A stretch of 64,000 bases of DNA from Escherichia coli (GTDB lineage Bacteria > Pseudomonadota > Gammaproteobacteria > Enterobacterales > Enterobacteriaceae). The stretch lies in the NCBI RefSeq assembly GCF_050920415.1, contig NZ_CP169309.1; one strand, written 5' to 3'. The translations under genes were made by a program, and so were the position numbers. Positions 54,884 to 63,727 of the stretch are shown piece by piece. The notes below the pieces were generated by a model. The model did no database searches and was not told the origin of the DNA. It worked only from the letters and a program-made list of their open reading frames with translations. How positions within the stretch are numbered: position 1 is the first letter of the stretch; each line of letters starts with the position of its first letter.

Positions 54884-57127
54884 TTAGAAACGGAAGGTTG
54901 CGGTTGCAACGACCTGACGTTCTGCGCCCCAGAAGCAGCCATAGGTATTAAAGCAGCTGGCGACGTATTCACGATCGAACAGGTTGTTGACATGCAGCGC
55001 CACGTTGGAGCCCGCCATGCCGACTCGCGCCAGATCATAACGCACTAACGCATCCACGACCGTATAACTTCCCACTTTAAAGGAGTTAGCCGGATCACCA
55101 TAGCTGGAGCCTGTAAAGCGACCGCCAGTACCGAGCGTCAGGCCGGAGAGCGGGCCTTCAAAGAAGGTGTAGTCAGCCCACAGAGAAGCCATGTGTTTTG
55201 GCACCTGCGCAGGCGTGTTGCCTTTGTAGGTAGTATCGGTGGTGTATTCTGCATCGGTGTAAGTATAAGAACCAACTACGTTAACACTCGCCGACAGCGC
55301 CGCTTTCGCTTCGATTTCTACGCCACGCGCGCGGATTTCACCACCTTCAACCGAGAAGAAGGAACCCTCAGGGTCCGCCATCAGGTTGTTGGTTTTAGTG
55401 AGATTATACACAGCACCAGTAACCACAATTGGGCGATCTTCCGGTACATATTTCACGCCGACCTCATACTGCTTACCTTTAGACGGCGCAAAAATATTAC
55501 CATCCTTCCCAACTTGTGAAGAAGGTTCAAACGATTCGCTATAGCTGAAGTAAGGTGTTACACCATTATCAAACAGGTAGTTAACACCACCACGCCAGGT
55601 AAACTGTTTGTCATCACGTTTATCGGTCGTCCCTTCAACGCGGTTATGAGACTCTTGATCCGCCCAGTCATAACGACCGCCCAGGGTGACCAGCACTTTA
55701 TCCCACTGCGCCTGATCCTGAACATAAACACCCGTTTGTTTCTGCTTATTCAGAATGCGGTAAGGGCCGGAGTTTGCCGGATCTTTCGCATTGAAGTCGA
55801 AATCGGTATTCACCGGATTGTACAGATCGAGCAGCGGTACGGAGTCGTCGTAACCAAACCAGGCGTTGATGTCATTACGCATACGCATAAAGTCGACACC
55901 GGTCAGCAGAGTGTGGTCGATATCGCCAGTGGCAAACTTGCTCTGCAACTGGGTATCAACGGAGAAGTTTTGCAGCTTCTCATCATCAACGACGTATTTA
56001 CGTGCCAGGTAGTGACCTTTATCGGCTGGCGCTAAAGCGGCACACTGTTTGCTGTAAGCATTCGCCGGATCGGAGCAGACGCCGTAACCATAAACGCTGT
56101 TTTGCGAGGTTTTGTTTTCAGCAAAGCGCAGGTTCTGACGCACCGTAAAGGTGTCGTTAAATTCGTGATCGAAGCTGTAGCCCACCATCTTCTCATTACG
56201 AGAATAGGTGTTGTTCTTCGCCCCTTCGTTAAAATCTGTCGGCAGACGCTTACCGTTCGGCAGCGGCTCAACGGTTCCCTCTTTCGGCAGCCAGCCGTAA
56301 TAACCGGTTTCCGGCTCGTTCTGGAAGTAAAAAAGGAAGGTGAAATTGGTTTTATCATCCGGGCGCCAGGTGAACGCTGGAGCAATAGCATAACGCTGCT
56401 CTTCTGCCCCCTTCTGCTGAGCATTGGCTGAACGCGCAATACCAGTCAGACGATAAGAGTAAACGCCGTCATCATCCAGCGCATCACTGAAGTCAAAACC
56501 AGTCTGGAACAGGCTGTCAGTACCGGCTTTAAACTGAATTTCTTTCAGCGGTTCTGTAGTCGGGCGCTTGCTGACCATGTTCAACAGGCCGCCAGGACTG
56601 CTTTTACCGTAAAGCACTGAAACCGGACCACGCATAATTTCAGCGCGTTCCAGCATATACGGGTCAATAACTGCATCGTTATAGAAGTTGCCTTGCAACT
56701 TCAGACCGTTGAGATAGTTATTCTGGCTTTGGCCTTCTGCTGCAAAACCACGAATAATCAAATGATCATAAGTGTTTGATGCACCACGCGTACCGACCGA
56801 AACGCCTGGCGTATAGCTAAGAGCTTCTTTTACCGACTTCGGCTGATGCAGCGCCATCTCTTCGGCGGTCACAACAGAAATAGACTGTGGCACTTTTTGA
56901 ATCGGTGTATCGGTTTTGGTGCCGGTAGCGGACTGTCGCGCCGCAATAGTTGCAGCTGGCCCCCATGCGCTTTCTTGCGGCGCTGGTGCAGCGGTAACGG
57001 TGATAGTGTCTTCTTTCGGTTCAACCGCTGCCTGTGCGTAAACAGACATGCCGCTAACCGCTGTGGCTACTACAACTGCGATTTTACGCAGTGAGTGTTT
57101 TGGCTGAGCAGTTTTGGAACGCGCCAT
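54884..57127 (-). CDS. fhuA: TonB-dependent ferrichrome outer-membrane receptor
   Basis: 747-aa ORF with signal peptide, TonB box (DTITVTA) and C-terminal beta-barrel ending ...ATATFRF. Confidence 0.97.
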   Translation of the reverse strand: MARSKTAQPKHSLRKIAVVVATAVSGMSVYAQAAVEPKEDTITVTAAPAPQESAWGPAATIAARQSATGTKTDTPIQKVPQSISVVTAEEMALHQPKSVKEALSYTPGVSVGTRGASNTYDHLIIRGFAAEGQSQNNYLNGLKLQGNFYNDAVIDPYMLERAEIMRGPVSVLYGKSSPGGLLNMVSKRPTTEPLKEIQFKAGTDSLFQTGFDFSDALDDDGVYSYRLTGIARSANAQQKGAEEQRYAIAPAFTWRPDDKTNFTFLFYFQNEPETGYYGWLPKEGTVEPLPNGKRLPTDFNEGAKNNTYSRNEKMVGYSFDHEFNDTFTVRQNLRFAENKTSQNSVYGYGVCSDPANAYSKQCAALAPADKGHYLARKYVVDDEKLQNFSVDTQLQSKFATGDIDHTLLTGVDFMRMRNDINAWFGYDDSVPLLDLYNPVNTDFDFNAKDPANSGPYRILNKQKQTGVYVQDQAQWDKVLVTLGGRYDWADQESHNRVEGTTDKRDDKQFTWRGGVNYLFDNGVTPYFSYSESFEPSSQVGKDGNIFAPSKGKQYEVGVKYVPEDRPIVVTGAVYNLTKTNNLMADPEGSFFSVEGGEIRARGVEIEAKAALSASVNVVGSYTYTDAEYTTDTTYKGNTPAQVPKHMASLWADYTFFEGPLSGLTLGTGGRFTGSSYGDPANSFKVGSYTVVDALVRYDLARVGMAGSNVALHVNNLFDREYVASCFNTYGCFWGAERQVVATATFRF

Positions 57128-57346: not shown

Positions 57347-59881
57347 TTAATTACTACCAAACATATCCTTGATCCAACCTGCTACGCCGTCACTGTCTTT
57401 CTGCTCTTGCTGAGCAGGTTGCTGTTGCGGCTGTTGCTGCGGCTGAGAAGACTGATCAAACGGATTGCCTGACGGTTGCTGCTGCATCTCACTCTGCTGG
57501 CACAGCGATTGCGGATCGCTGGTCCAGACCGGTAAGACACGCATGCCCCCGCTGCAGACAAAGTTGCCGTCGTAGTCCACGCCCATATCAGCAATGTCTT
57601 CTGGCGGAACAAGATTCAGCGGTGTTGGTGTCTGGTTAGCCAGATAACGCTGATAAATCGACATTGCCCCACTGGCACCATACAGTTTGGTCGGCTGGTT
57701 GTTATCACGGCCTACCCAGGTGATGGTCACCGTGCTGCCGTCAATGCCCGCAAACCAGGTATCCACGTTGTTGTTGGTAGTCCCGGTTTTGCCCGCCAGA
57801 TGCAGGTTCGGGTATTTCGCCCCAAGCTGACGACCCGTACCGCGTTGTACCACCTGCTGCATGGTCCATAGTGTCAGATACGCCGCCTGCGCCGGAACCG
57901 CGCGTTCCGCCTGCGGGAAGCTCTGATACAACACCTTGCCATCTTCCGCGATTACCGAACGCAGCGCAGAAAGCGGTGCTCGATTACCACCACTAGCGAT
58001 GGTCTGGAACGCCTGCGCCACTTCAATTGGCGTTAAGTTCAACGCCCCCAGCAGCATTGCCGGAACCGGATGCAGCTGATCTTTCGGTACGCCCAGTTTA
58101 ATCCAGGTATCCGTAACCGCAGGCAGACCCAGCGCCATCCCCAGATTCACCGTCGGCACGTTCATCGAACGTGTCAACGCATCCACCAGCATCACTCTGC
58201 CACTTTCGCTATAACGACGATCATCGTTCTGCGGTGACCAGACCTGGCCATTCGGCTGACGCAGCGCGATTGGCGCATCGGCAATCCACGTGTTCAGGCG
58301 ATAGATTTTCGGCTGGCTTAAGGCCGTCAGATAAGTCGCTGGTTTTGCAAGGGAACCAATCGAACGACGCGCCTGCATCGCACGGTTGTAACCTGCAAAC
58401 TGCGGCTCAGAACCACCAACCATCGCGCGAACTTCACCGCTAAAGCGGTCGACAACCACAATTGCCGTTTCCAGATCGCTCAGCTTTCGCTGTTTCTTCA
58501 GCGCCGGAATACCTTCCACGGCGGCTTTTTCTGCCGCGTCCTGGGCCACCGAGTCAAAGGTAGTGAAGATCTTCACGCCGGAGAGATCTTTCACTTTATC
58601 GCCCAGTTTCGCCTGTAGCTCCTGACGCACCAGTTGCATAAAGGCTGGCTGTGGAGAGATTACCCCGCCGCGCGGCTGAACCCCCAGCGGACGTGCACTC
58701 AACATGTCATAGAGCTCTTGATCAATAATCTGCTGTTGTTGCAGCAGACGCAGCACCAGGTTACGTCGCTCCAGCGCCAGTTTCGGGTTACGCCACGGGT
58801 TGTAGATGGACGCTCCTTTCACCATACCCACCAACAGCGCCTGCTGATCGAGGCTCAATTCTTCTACCGGGCGACCAAAGTAATACAAGCTCGCCAGCGG
58901 GAAGCCGCGGATTTCGTTGTCGCCGCTCTGACCGAGATACACCTCGTTCATATACAGCTCAAGAATGCGGTCTTTGCTGTAACGCGCATCCATGATCAGC
59001 GCCATGTAGGCTTCGTTCGCTTTACGCCAGTAAGAACGTTCGCTGGAGAGGAACAGGTTTTTCACCAACTGTTGCGTCAGCGTACTCGCTCCCTGCACCG
59101 TGCGTCCGGCGGTCAGGTTTGCCAGCACCGCACGTCCGATGGAGTAGAGACTGATCCCATCATGCTCGTAGAAATGACGGTCTTCTGTCGCCAGCAAAGT
59201 ATCCACCAGCAAATCCGGGAAACCACTGCGCGGCACAAACAGACGTTGCTCACCGTTTGGTGAAGAGATCATAGTGATCAGGCGCGGATCAAGACGGAAG
59301 AAACCGAACTGACGGTTGTTCTCCATATTGACGATCGTCGCCAGATGATCGCCATCAAAGGTCAGACGCGCACGCACCTGTCCTTCTTTGCTGTCCGGGA
59401 AATCAAACGGACGACGGATCATCTCAATGCTGTTGGCCTGCACGGTAAATTCGCCAGGGCGCGTCATTTTCGACACCTGACGATACTGGGTCGCCTCCAG
59501 CAGCTTCACCATCTCGTTTTTGCTGATGGTCATGTCTGGCTCAAGGTTGACCATTCGGCCATAAACAGCCGCAGGCAATTGCCAGACTTTGCCATCAATA
59601 CGGCTACGAATTTTTTGATCGAGATAAACGCCGTAAATGGCGATCAGCACGGCAAAAACAATAGCCAGTTTTAGCAGCAGCCATAGCCAGCCGCGTTTGC
59701 CACGAGGCTTACGCCCTTTGCCTTTGCCCTTACCTTTGCGCGGCATCGGTTCTTCATCCTCATAGTCATCATAATCGTCGTAATCATCGTCATCTTCGTA
59801 ACGACGACGGCTTACCTTTTGTTTGACCGGACGCGTCGGTTTCCCTTTGCGTCCAATTGGCTCGCGGTCATTCCCGGCCAT
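57347..59881 (-). CDS. mrcB: Penicillin-binding protein 1B (bifunctional transglycosylase/transpeptidase)
   Basis: 844-aa protein [22 protein letters not shown]... with acidic and basic N-terminal clusters, TM segment, transpeptidase and Q-rich C-terminus. The track ORF is extended 5 codons upstream. Confidence 0.97.
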
Positions 59882-59924
59882 GCTTTTTCTCCGCAATATT
59901 CAGGCGCAAAAGCCCGATTTTCTG

Positions 59925-59948
59925 TTCTTCTGTAACAAGACAGAAGAA
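59925..59948. other. A/T-rich hairpin in the hrpB-mrcB spacer
   Basis: TTCTTCTGT-AACAAG-ACAGAAGAA, 9-bp perfect arms. Confidence 0.3.
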
Positions 59949-59974
59949 GATATCTCTCAAATTTACTTTGGTCT

Positions 59975-62404
59975 TCATGAATACTTTTTCGTCCGTCGCG
60001 TCGGTGCGGTATTTGCCGGATCATCCGGCCAGACGTGTTTGGGATAACGCCCTTTCATCTCTTTTTGCACATCGCAATACGCTCCTTTCCAGAAGGCGCT
60101 CAAATCTCGTGTGATTTGCAGCGGCCTTTGGGCAGGAGAAAGCAACTCCAGCACCAGCGGCACACGCCCCTGGGCGATCGTCGGATTGGTGGCCTCGCCA
60201 AACATCTCCTGCATTCTCACCGCCAGCGCGGGCGGGTTATCTTCATGGTAACGAATGGCGATCCGGCTTCCCGTCGGCACAGTGTAATGCGCAGGCAATT
60301 CACTATCCAGACGTTGCTGCATCCCCCAATCAAGTAATCCGCGTAGCGCCTGATAAATATCGAGTGATTTCAGGCCGCGTAGCGAATGTACGCCTGCCAT
60401 ATGCGGCAGTAGCCACGTTTCCAGCGTCGCCAACAAACTTTCATCATCAACCGCTGGCCAGTCATATTCTGGCAACCACCTGGCGGCGCATAACAAACGC
60501 AAGCGTAGCTGTTCCGCTTCCGGCGTCCAGTTAAGCACGCTTAAGCCTTTTTCACGAATGCCGTTAAGCATCGCCTGATGCAGCTCGTCTTCTGAAGGCT
60601 TCGCCAGCGGCTGCACTTTTACCGTCAGTTGGCCGATTTGCAACCGACGCCAGGCTTTCAGCGTACCTTGCGCATCATCCCACTCCACGGTGTCCGATTG
60701 CTGCACCAGCTGCGGACAGCGTTGCACTAATTCATCGATATCGACCGGTAGCGCCAGTAAAATCCGCGCATCCGGCGAGGCGCTACCCTGCAATAATAAC
60801 GGTGCGATCAACCATTCGTGGCGGCTGAGCGCATCATCGGCATCGAGCATTGCCCCCATGCCGTTTGCCAGTTGATAGCGCCCCTCTTGCCCACGGCGGC
60901 GAGCGATGCGATCGGCAAACGCTCCGGCAAGTAACGGTGCGATAAGCGAACTGTCTGCCTCACCGCCGCGTACGTTTAAGCGCTTTAACAGTTGCTGGCT
61001 ACGTTGCTGCCAGGCAGGTTGATTGCGCGAAAACGCCACGCCCAGATCGATATTGCCCATCCGTGGTGGCTCTTCGAGAATAGCGGCAATTTTTGCAGCG
61101 GTAGCAGCTTCGTCGTCGCTCTTTGCGCTCACCAGCATTGCCGCTAAACGCGGATCGTTACCCAGCGTCGCCATTTTCTGCCCTTTCGTGCTTAGCCGTT
61201 CACCGTCCATCGCCCCCAGCATCCGCAACAGGCGTTTCGCGGCCTGTAAATTCACGGCTGGCGGTTGATCCAGCCAGCTCATCTGCGTCGGATCGCTGCA
61301 TCCCCATTGCAGTAATTCCATCAGCAAACCGGAGAGATCGCTTTGTAAGATTTCCGGTTCACTTTGCGCGGAGGCGCGTTCTGCTTGTTCTTTGGCGATT
61401 AAATGTAGACAGATCCCCGGCTCCAGACGTCCGGCACGCCCCGCACGCTGCGTCATAGATGCCTGACTAACGCGTTGAGTAATCAGCCGCGTAAGCCCCG
61501 TGCGCGGATCAAAGCGCGCCACACGTTCCTGAGCACAATCCACCACCAGACGAATACCTTCGATGGTTAAACTGGTTTCAGCAATATTGGTTGCCAGCAC
61601 TACTTTGCGCATCCCTTCTGGTGCCGGAAGGATCGCTTTTCGCTGATCGTTCAGCGACAACGCGCCATACAGCGGGCAGAGCAACACATCACTACCGATG
61701 CGCGAAGCCAGTTGTTCCTGAACGCGCTGAATTTCTCCGACACCAGGTAAAAATAACAGTAATGAGCCGCTTTCCTGATGCAGCAATTCGGCGGTGGCAA
61801 CCGCCACGGCTTCATCAAAACGCTGATGAGCGGGCAGCGGTAAATATCGGCGTTCAACCGGAAACGAGCGCCCTTCTGAGATGACGACGGGCGCTTCTGG
61901 CAGCATCTGCTGCAAGCGGTCATTGTCCAGCGTAGCCGACATAATCAGTAGTTTAAGGTCATCACGCAGACCTTGTTGCACATCGAGTAACAGCGCCAAC
62001 GCCAGATCCGCCTGCAAGCTGCGCTCATGAAACTCATCGAGGATCACCAATCCAACGCCGCTCAGTTCAGGGTCACGCTGGATCATGCGCGTCAACACGC
62101 CTTCGGTAACTACTTCCAGGCGAGTATTTGGCCCGACACAGTTTTGCGCGCGCATCCGGTAGCCTACCGTATCACCTGTTTTTTCGTTAAGCAGTTCCGC
62201 CAGTCGTTGCGCAACGTTACGCGCCGCCAGGCGACGCGGCTCCAGCAGGATAATTTTTCCGTTAATGCCGGGATGCGCCAGCAGTTGCAGCGGCAGCCAG
62301 GTTGATTTCCCGGCCCCGGTCGGCGCACTTAATAACACCTGCGGTGCACCATCGAGGGCAGCAAGTAACTCAGGTAAGACGGCAGCAACGGGCAACGACG
62401 ACAC
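59975..62404 (-). CDS. hrpB: ATP-dependent RNA helicase HrpB (DEAH-box)
   Basis: 809-aa protein from a GTG start (VSSLPVAAVLPELLAALDGAPQVLLSAPTGAGKST...) with DEFH box. The track ORF is extended 15 codons upstream. Confidence 0.93.
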   Translation of the reverse strand: MSSLPVAAVLPELLAALDGAPQVLLSAPTGAGKSTWLPLQLLAHPGINGKIILLEPRRLAARNVAQRLAELLNEKTGDTVGYRMRAQNCVGPNTRLEVVTEGVLTRMIQRDPELSGVGLVILDEFHERSLQADLALALLLDVQQGLRDDLKLLIMSATLDNDRLQQMLPEAPVVISEGRSFPVERRYLPLPAHQRFDEAVAVATAELLHQESGSLLLFLPGVGEIQRVQEQLASRIGSDVLLCPLYGALSLNDQRKAILPAPEGMRKVVLATNIAETSLTIEGIRLVVDCAQERVARFDPRTGLTRLITQRVSQASMTQRAGRAGRLEPGICLHLIAKEQAERASAQSEPEILQSDLSGLLMELLQWGCSDPTQMSWLDQPPAVNLQAAKRLLRMLGAMDGERLSTKGQKMATLGNDPRLAAMLVSAKSDDEAATAAKIAAILEEPPRMGNIDLGVAFSRNQPAWQQRSQQLLKRLNVRGGEADSSLIAPLLAGAFADRIARRRGQEGRYQLANGMGAMLDADDALSRHEWLIAPLLLQGSASPDARILLALPVDIDELVQRCPQLVQQSDTVEWDDAQGTLKAWRRLQIGQLTVKVQPLAKPSEDELHQAMLNGIREKGLSVLNWTPEAEQLRLRLLCAARWLPEYDWPAVDDESLLATLETWLLPHMAGVHSLRGLKSLDIYQALRGLLDWGMQQRLDSELPAHYTVPTGSRIAIRYHEDNPPALAVRMQEMFGEATNPTIAQGRVPLVLELLSPAQRPLQITRDLSAFWKGAYCDVQKEMKGRYPKHVWPDDPANTAPTRRTKKYS

Positions 62405-62477: not shown

Positions 62478-63727
<1,250 letters not shown>

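Follow-up and report, generated by a model that had tools for sequence, protein, structure and literature searches.

PBP1b, a class A penicillin-binding protein and bifunctional peptidoglycan synthase, is a major enzyme of cell-wall synthesis and an antibiotic target. Escherichia coli makes it in two isoforms, with translation of the shorter gamma form beginning 46 codons downstream of that of the alpha form (PMC13423804, Nature Microbiology 2026). The gamma start dates back to 1984 in the literature (Kato 1984; Broome-Smith 1985; Chalut 2001; all as cited in PMC13423804), where both proteins are described as bands of 94.2 and 88.9 kDa. At the division site alpha alone is enriched and shows higher activity, gamma staying dispersed, and it is the long form alone that strengthens the septum; the first residues of alpha, notably R6, have been proposed to bind FtsA, and an N-terminal peptide termed N-pep (residues 1-14) is reported to recruit PBP1b to midcell via FtsA (PMC13423804). 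The same study employed an M46L substitution to obtain a stable alpha-only form. Ribosome profiling has placed initiation at the internal site in two genera: Meydan et al. (10.1101/520783) recovered by Ribo-RET the internal starts of three E. coli genes in which such a start had already been characterised, mrcB among them, and Fijalkowski et al. (mBio 2024, PMC11005335) mapped the internal mrcB start in Salmonella by Ribo-RET, reported the same proteoform pair and had already noted that a basic stretch precedes an acidic one in the extension.

The stretch of DNA analysed here, referred to as the window, comprises 64,000 nucleotides of the E. coli contig NZ_CP169309.1 (assembly GCF_050920415.1) and carries the mrcB (ponB) coding sequence at 57347..59881 on the minus strand, the strand on which all features below are located unless stated otherwise. 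It encodes the alpha isoform of PBP1b (844 aa plus stop), as judged from the open reading frame, protein models, PDB structures and RefSeq. The product matches two curated PBP1b equivalog models over its full length and above their cutoffs (NF007061 from NCBIfam, 1735.3 bits against a cutoff of 1120; TIGR02071, 1248 bits against 717.75). Its Pfam domains, PBP1_TM (PF14812, residues 1-79, which include the tail), UB2H (113-197), Transgly (209-379) and Transpeptidase (473-714), follow the PBP1b order of a tail with a transmembrane helix, UB2H, a GT51 glycosyltransferase and a transpeptidase. The solved E. coli PBP1b structures 3vma, 3fwl and 5fgz/5hl9 match residues 53-804 at E=0 and are near-identical to it, so that the first-pass annotation was correct in calling the gene MrcB; all of these constructs begin at residue 53 or later and the tail is resolved in none of them. 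In matching RefSeq genomes hrpB is annotated directly upstream of mrcB, and the next reading frame after mrcB in the window (747 aa, 54884..57127) is one that we take to be fhuA from its size and position; with this assumption the neighbourhood fits the order hrpB-mrcB-fhuA.

The start codons, Shine-Dalgarno (SD) motifs, charged blocks and domain architecture are the same as those of K-12 PBP1b (Kato 1984; Broome-Smith 1985; Chalut 2001; Navarro/Vettiger 2026), and there is no difference within the charged tract itself, a 131-nt segment of which is 100% identical to K-12. The two loci differ in that K-12 carries a repeat element of about 100 nt between hrpB and mrcB which is absent from the window. 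The mrcB allele of the window belongs to a rarer lineage, 41-52 SNPs away from the sampled strains over the first 1,273 nt of the gene.

The tail is built from a succession of charged segments. Translation of 59672..59881 (70 aa) places the tract at 59690..59809 exactly on residues R25-G64 of MrcB. The alpha start codon, the ATG of Met1 (59879..59881), agrees with the RefSeq annotation and with the conserved N-terminus of 97 species among the matches listed, and is preceded 7 nt upstream by a GGAG SD motif (59889..59892; GCGGAGAAAAAGCATG, read directly from the sequence). It is followed by the alpha-specific N-pep (residues 1-14, 59840..59881), near-invariant across the Enterobacterales among the matches listed, by a first basic segment, P15-R27 (59801..59839), and by the acidic block Y28-E44 (59750..59800), which forms the C-terminal part of the alpha-only extension and in which 13 of 17 residues are acidic. 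A second basic block, P47-G64 (59690..59743), lies next to the membrane and is common to alpha and gamma; a transmembrane helix at about W65-L87 (59621..59689, boundaries approximate) is apparent as a hydrophobic stretch within the PBP1_TM match.

The clustering of charge in the acidic block is far above chance: in 5,000 shuffles of the protein no 17-residue window held more than 10 acidic residues (mean 5.9). The basic block is less extreme, 10 of its 18 residues being basic where the 5,000 shuffles reached 11 at most (mean 6.5), and would act as a positive-inside membrane anchor for both isoforms. The acidic-then-basic order that had been noted at first reading is thus borne out by translation, the blocks as quoted there omitting only the 'PM' between them. 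Two further reading frames overlap the tract, one of 42 aa on the opposite strand (59637..59765, plus) and one of 40 aa out of frame on the minus strand, and both were put down to the repetitive nature of the coding sequence.

The in-frame ATG of Met46 (59744..59746) is the gamma start in the literature and is occupied by a start-capable codon in all 97 species among the matches listed. Read directly from the sequence, it is preceded by a GAGGA motif (59757..59761) that resembles an SD sequence and is made up of the codons of E41 (GAG) and D42 (GAT); the spacing of 10 nt to the ATG in E. coli is longer than optimal. The suggestion of the first-pass annotation that this internal Met provides an alternative start therefore coincides with an experimentally established site (PMC13423804; 10.1101/520783; PMC11005335) and had long been known. 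A scan of 59500..60200 for consensus sequences returned no promoter and no terminator, and so offers no sign that gamma has an internal promoter of its own; with Rfam families likewise lacking in 59300..60300 at E≤1, neither a separate transcript nor a structured RNA element is supported.

Both isoforms stem from a single message. Initiation at the ATG at 59881 yields alpha, whose 45-residue extension consists of the conserved N-terminal peptide, the basic stretch and the acidic D/E/Y block; on published work, this extension brings the enzyme to the division site, probably through FtsA. Initiation at Met46 yields gamma, in which the basic, KG-rich juxtamembrane block is all that is left of the tail. 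The SD-like motif for gamma is contributed by the final acidic codons, GAG GAT GAA GAA, and the purine-rich acidic tract, being poor at base-pairing, leaves the internal initiation region almost unstructured. The acidic codons may thereby double as an internal platform for ribosome binding.

The conservation of this arrangement was followed through GTDB species representatives, retrieved with a DNA pattern for DREPIGRKG, which gave 97 usable Enterobacterales species among the matches listed. A protein search with the first 200 aa returned mostly fragments, which were usable for N-termini, and all cross-species counts rest on the genome DNA scan. Across these 97 species the N-terminus (M-x-G-[ND]...) is conserved, with hardly any variation in residues 1-14. 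The acidic block spans 10 to 30 aa (median 16), and 42 to 62 residues precede the internal start. At the position of Met46 a start-capable codon is present in 97/97 (ATG in 66, GTG in 26 and TTG in 5), valine occurring there only as GTG and leucine only as TTG; GTG is seen, for example, in Pantoea and Leclercia species and TTG in Tatumella and Rosenbergiella species. By comparison, GTG accounts for only 42% of the other valine codons in the same mrcB genes, and the background of in-frame start-capable codons elsewhere in the tail is 53/2,676 among the species listed. On a 76-taxon tree of these species, Fitch parsimony needs at least six independent changes from one start codon to another and no change to a non-start codon; ACG stands at the Met46 position in one metagenomic homologue (P0015/L148).

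The SD motif shows a similar retention. An SD core is present at positions -18 to -5 in 91.5% of 94 species among the matches listed versus 65±4.6% in synonymous recodings, with a maximum of 79% in 500 simulations, and the P-values derived from these simulations are optimistic because the 97 species are phylogenetically related. The glutamate codons ahead of the internal start are chosen according to position, GAG prevailing over GAA at -5 (63:10) and -4 (26:4) and GAA over GAG at -3 (46:18) and -2 (48:11) in the species listed. Broad synonymous-site constraint around the internal start was not found, the normalised codon entropy of 0.64-0.69 lying close to the control value of 0.70, and an earlier impression, formed on nine closely related genera, of a region frozen throughout at synonymous sites was dropped on these grounds. 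Since synonymous conservation is not elevated overall, the constraint appears to be focal and to concern the start codon and the one or two codons that form the SD motif. The retention of the internal start, the SD motif and the charged-block layout across the 97 species among the matches listed suggests that the short isoform is also under selection. Whether the two-isoform design of PBP1b is selected across the whole order, with a dual-purpose acidic block that serves both as a linker in alpha and as an unstructured, SD-bearing mRNA platform, and with a start codon free to switch between ATG, GTG and TTG, is to our minds an even bet on the strength of these comparisons. If true, such switching could tune the alpha:gamma ratio between lineages.

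The RNA of the region is weakly folded. In the mrcB gene of the window, 50-nt segments covering the acidic tract have folding energies of -0.7 to -2 kcal/mol, compared with -12.0±3.5 for the gene as a whole, and the single least-structured segment of the entire gene falls over this tract and adjoins the internal start. Over 94 species among the matches listed the internal initiation window averages -4.6 kcal/mol versus -12.6 downstream, and in 84% of them the region is less structured than its own synonymous recodings. This computed lack of structure would aid internal initiation; it follows largely from amino-acid composition and may for this reason be a by-product rather than a selected property.

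The DNA of the tract had further been described at first reading as a near-repeat prone to slippage. Tandem Repeats Finder indeed reports an imperfect array of period 9/18 over the acidic tract (59754..59801, 76-77% matches) and one of period 6 over the KG tract (59715..59739, 78% matches), and the repeats of the mrcB tail are attributable to its biased amino-acid composition, which calls for GAY, TAY, GAR, AAR and GGN codons. Perfect repetition is scarce: the longest perfect tandem stretch of the acidic tract is 7 nt, its longest codon-unit repeat being GATGAT (codons D32-D33, 59783..59788), and that of the basic tract is 14 nt (GGCAAAGGCAAAGG, 2.3 copies of a 6-nt unit, 59715..59728). When the peptide was recoded synonymously with the codon usage of the window, the 14 nt of the basic tract proved typical, whereas the 7 nt of the acidic tract is shorter than in 98.6% of recodings (mean 16 nt; P=0.014). 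The alternation of GAT with GAC and of TAC with TAT therefore makes the acidic tract less prone to slippage than its peptide implies.

Length variation was surveyed in complete E. coli genomes with a 131-nt query over the tract, which found a match in 5,424/5,426, at an identity of at least 99% in 5,092 (94%), of 95-99% in 319 and of 90-95% in 13. Alignments of the lower-identity matches revealed three length alleles. In the first (ΔGAT) one GAT is missing from GAT GAC GAT GAT, which shortens DDDD to DDD and the protein to 843 aa; in the second (ΔGGCAAA) one GGCAAA is missing from the 14-nt repeat, which turns KG×4 into KG×3 and gives 842 aa; strain LR14 combines both, along with two SNPs, in a protein of 841 aa. 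Junction-specific megablast queries, which have a word of at most 27 nt in common with the reference and so do not seed on it, located ΔGAT in 180 and ΔGGCAAA in 143 of the 5,426 genomes, and the same approach recovered neither a +GAT nor a +GGCAAA allele in any of them. About 13 genomes, those of the 90-95% band, apparently carry both deletions, the one that was inspected being the double allele; if this holds for all 13, the alleles cover approximately 323 of the 332 non-reference genomes and about 9 lie outside the alleles tested. Both deletions fall on the two longest perfect codon-unit repeats and both are in-frame. Indels also occur in the Q-rich C-terminal tail of the protein.

In-frame length polymorphism between strains, which the first-pass annotation had anticipated and proposed to seek by aligning mrcB 5' regions, is thus present in E. 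coli. Neither of the two outcomes that it had named as speaking against it, an invariant tract length and a lack of peptide evidence for the internal start, was encountered, because length alleles exist and the internal Met is the established gamma start. The imperfect arrays and the two indel sites uphold its view of the tract as a near-repeat, while 'prone to slippage' is an overstatement in the face of two deletion-type alleles in about 6% of genomes, no insertions, mostly lineage-bound inheritance and an acidic tract that is less repetitive than expected.

To trace the history of the alleles, the first 1,273 nt of mrcB were compared between 18 strains in a neighbour-joining tree from which indel columns were excluded. 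The six ΔGAT carriers in the sample all group in one deep mrcB clade, at most 15 SNPs apart and monophyletic in the sample, and the eight carriers that were inspected share only two protein accessions, which fits a single old event that has been stably inherited. The ΔGGCAAA carriers form one B2-like clade with LR14 on a separate branch, and the KG×4 strain APEC O2:K1:H4 lies only 2 SNPs from the KG×3 strain A37, indicating limited recurrence on the 18-strain tree. Outside E. coli, KG×3 occurs in Salmonella, Citrobacter, Enterobacter and the representatives of two further Escherichia species, whose DNA at this point is the same as that of the E. coli 'deletion' allele; in E. albertii the count is KG×4. 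Taken together, the KG×3 outgroups, the KG×4 of E. albertii and the positions of the E. coli carriers on the tree imply that KG×4 is probably a derived duplication whose copy number has flipped a few times, an interpretation of sequence comparisons in which the ancestral state and the number of events within E. coli are only roughly bounded; the mrcB 5' region is too conserved to separate clades, a 300-nt B2-like query being 99.3% identical to K-12. Rare replication slippage at GATGAT and at (GGCAAA)2.3 has probably produced in-frame alleles shorter by one Asp or one Gly-Lys, which particular E. coli lineages carry stably and which may be near-neutral. As the indels are in-frame and largely bound to lineages, the data argue for a tract that is not hypermutable and that undergoes rare slippage at two short perfect repeats.

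Other accounts of the tail have to be weighed against this one. Met46 might be an ordinary residue and the shorter PBP1b a product of proteolysis; disordered tails are accessible to proteases in principle, and nothing was found in support of this view. The stable alpha-only form obtained with M46L (PMC13423804) and the Ribo-RET peaks at the internal site in two genera (10.1101/520783; PMC11005335) refute a proteolytic origin, and the confinement of the site to ATG, GTG or TTG in every one of the 97 species among the matches listed, down to the choice of valine and leucine codons, likewise contradicts it, leaving it with a negligible probability. A more serious contender is that the acidic block acts purely at the protein level in alpha, as a flexible spacer or as a segment that balances charge or binds a partner on the stretch from the FtsA-binding peptide to the membrane, and that the SD motif and low structure are incidental. 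The block keeps its D/E composition and its periodic Tyr or Phe at lengths of 10-30 aa in the species among the matches listed, as is typical of disordered linkers, composition goes a long way towards explaining the low RNA structure, and general synonymous conservation is not elevated; the codon preferences at -5 to -2 and the enrichment of the SD core, however, exceed synonymous expectation, and 84% of the 94 species among the matches listed are less structured than their recodings. We regard an exclusively protein-level role as rather unlikely, although one to be taken seriously, and the protein and mRNA roles are not mutually exclusive.

The tract could also be thought of as a contingency locus, i.e. 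a hypermutable simple sequence in which frequent slippage tunes or switches the length of the PBP1b tail within populations. In-frame length variants do occur at both perfect repeats, and the number of KG units has shifted on more than one occasion, as attested by A37 at 2 SNPs from a KG×4 strain, by the separate branch of LR14 and by E. albertii with KG×4 against two Escherichia species with KG×3. However, the repeats are very short (2 and 2.3 copies) and not the perfect arrays of many copies that such a locus calls for; only two alleles and no insertions turned up in 5,426 genomes, 94% of which are at least 99% identical over the tract; the ΔGAT carriers make up one deep clade instead of a scatter of gains and losses; every change is in-frame; and 98.6% of synonymous recodings are more repetitive than the acidic tract itself. 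Hypermutability of this kind is highly improbable. We favour the reading in which one mrcB mRNA gives rise to alpha and gamma, the acidic codons would provide an unstructured SD platform for the latter, and slippage is rare and lineage-bound, and we assign a probability of roughly 90% to this account as a whole.

The core of the finding, a charged tail with a second start, has long been known, and the established picture is unchanged. Our additions are modest and incremental: a census of the length alleles, a DNA repetitiveness that is lower than expected, and the retention of a start-capable codon and an SD motif throughout the order. In about 6% of complete E. coli genomes the acidic block is one residue shorter or the basic block two residues shorter, and these genomes constitute ready-made natural variants with which the effect of tail length or charge could be tested.

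What distinguishes the isoforms of mrcB is not a folded domain, as in infB and clpB, but a short disordered tail close to the membrane that controls localisation. The three genes, listed together by Meydan et al. (10.1101/520783), have in common one open reading frame with two SD-driven starts and a long and a short proteoform. A close counterpart of the tail described here is that of Salmonella Typhimurium MrcB (PMC11005335), which has the same succession of N-peptide, basic stretch, acidic block, internal ATG, KG block and transmembrane helix and differs in an acidic block of 12 aa versus 17 in the window, an extension of 42 residues and KG×3 versus KG×4. With the phase-variable contingency loci of Haemophilus and Neisseria the tract shares length changes at tandem repeats, presumably through slipped-strand mispairing; in contrast to those loci its repeats number only 2-2.3 copies, its changes are in-frame, and its two alleles remain bound to lineages.

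The alpha isoform of PBP1b is most plausibly read from the ATG at 59881 on the minus strand. In a mechanical ORF call the frame begins five codons further upstream, at a TTG at 59896 (MRRKSMAGN...), which would add the segment 59882..59896 on the minus strand to mrcB; the RefSeq annotation and the conservation of the N-terminus across species instead favour ATG 59881 as the genuine start of alpha. Within or just after the acidic and basic blocks of the cytoplasmic tail, an in-frame stop or a frameshift is present in two species representatives, Mixta sp. Marseille-Q2659 (locus L064) and Kluyvera genomosp. 3 YDC799 (locus L098). These disruptions may reflect errors made in sequencing a stretch of low complexity, or else genuine breaks of the alpha frame that spare the gamma isoform.

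The window belongs to an uncommon E. coli lineage, as seen in the region 58600..59980. Over 381 nt, an identity of at least 99% to the window is reached by only 19 of the 5,424 genomes, and a single one, strain MFDS1022581, matches it exactly. When the 5' 1,273 nt of mrcB are compared with 17 sampled alleles, the window is separated from every one of them by 41–52 SNPs. The intergenic spacer between hrpB and mrcB (59882..59974) measures 93 nt in the window versus 195 nt in K-12 and O157:H7, where it includes a GC-rich imperfect-palindrome repeat element of approximately 100 nt (CCCTCTCCCTGTGGGAGAGGGCCGGGGTGAGGGC...). Strain 11899A carries the same element in an arrangement that differs from that of K-12 and O157:H7.

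In-frame length polymorphism is commoner in the Q/P-rich C-terminal tail of the mrcB product (57401..57448, minus strand) than at the N-terminal tract. Approximately 772 of the 5,424 genomes fall into a 90–95% identity band for this tail, the sampled members of which are 9 nt shorter, and about 10 genomes in the same census fall into an 80–90% band, where the single genome looked at is shorter by 12 nt. The 9-nt and the 12-nt deletion are both located in a CAG/CAA/CCG repeat. The C-terminal deletion polymorphism thus accounts for the 841-residue PBP1b of strain WP5-S18-ESBL-09, the N-terminal tract of which has the reference form.

With regard to internal initiation, the window also includes sfsA (63023..63727, plus strand), which Meydan et al. 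(bioRxiv 10.1101/520783) list among the genes for which they confirmed an internal translation start by experiment.
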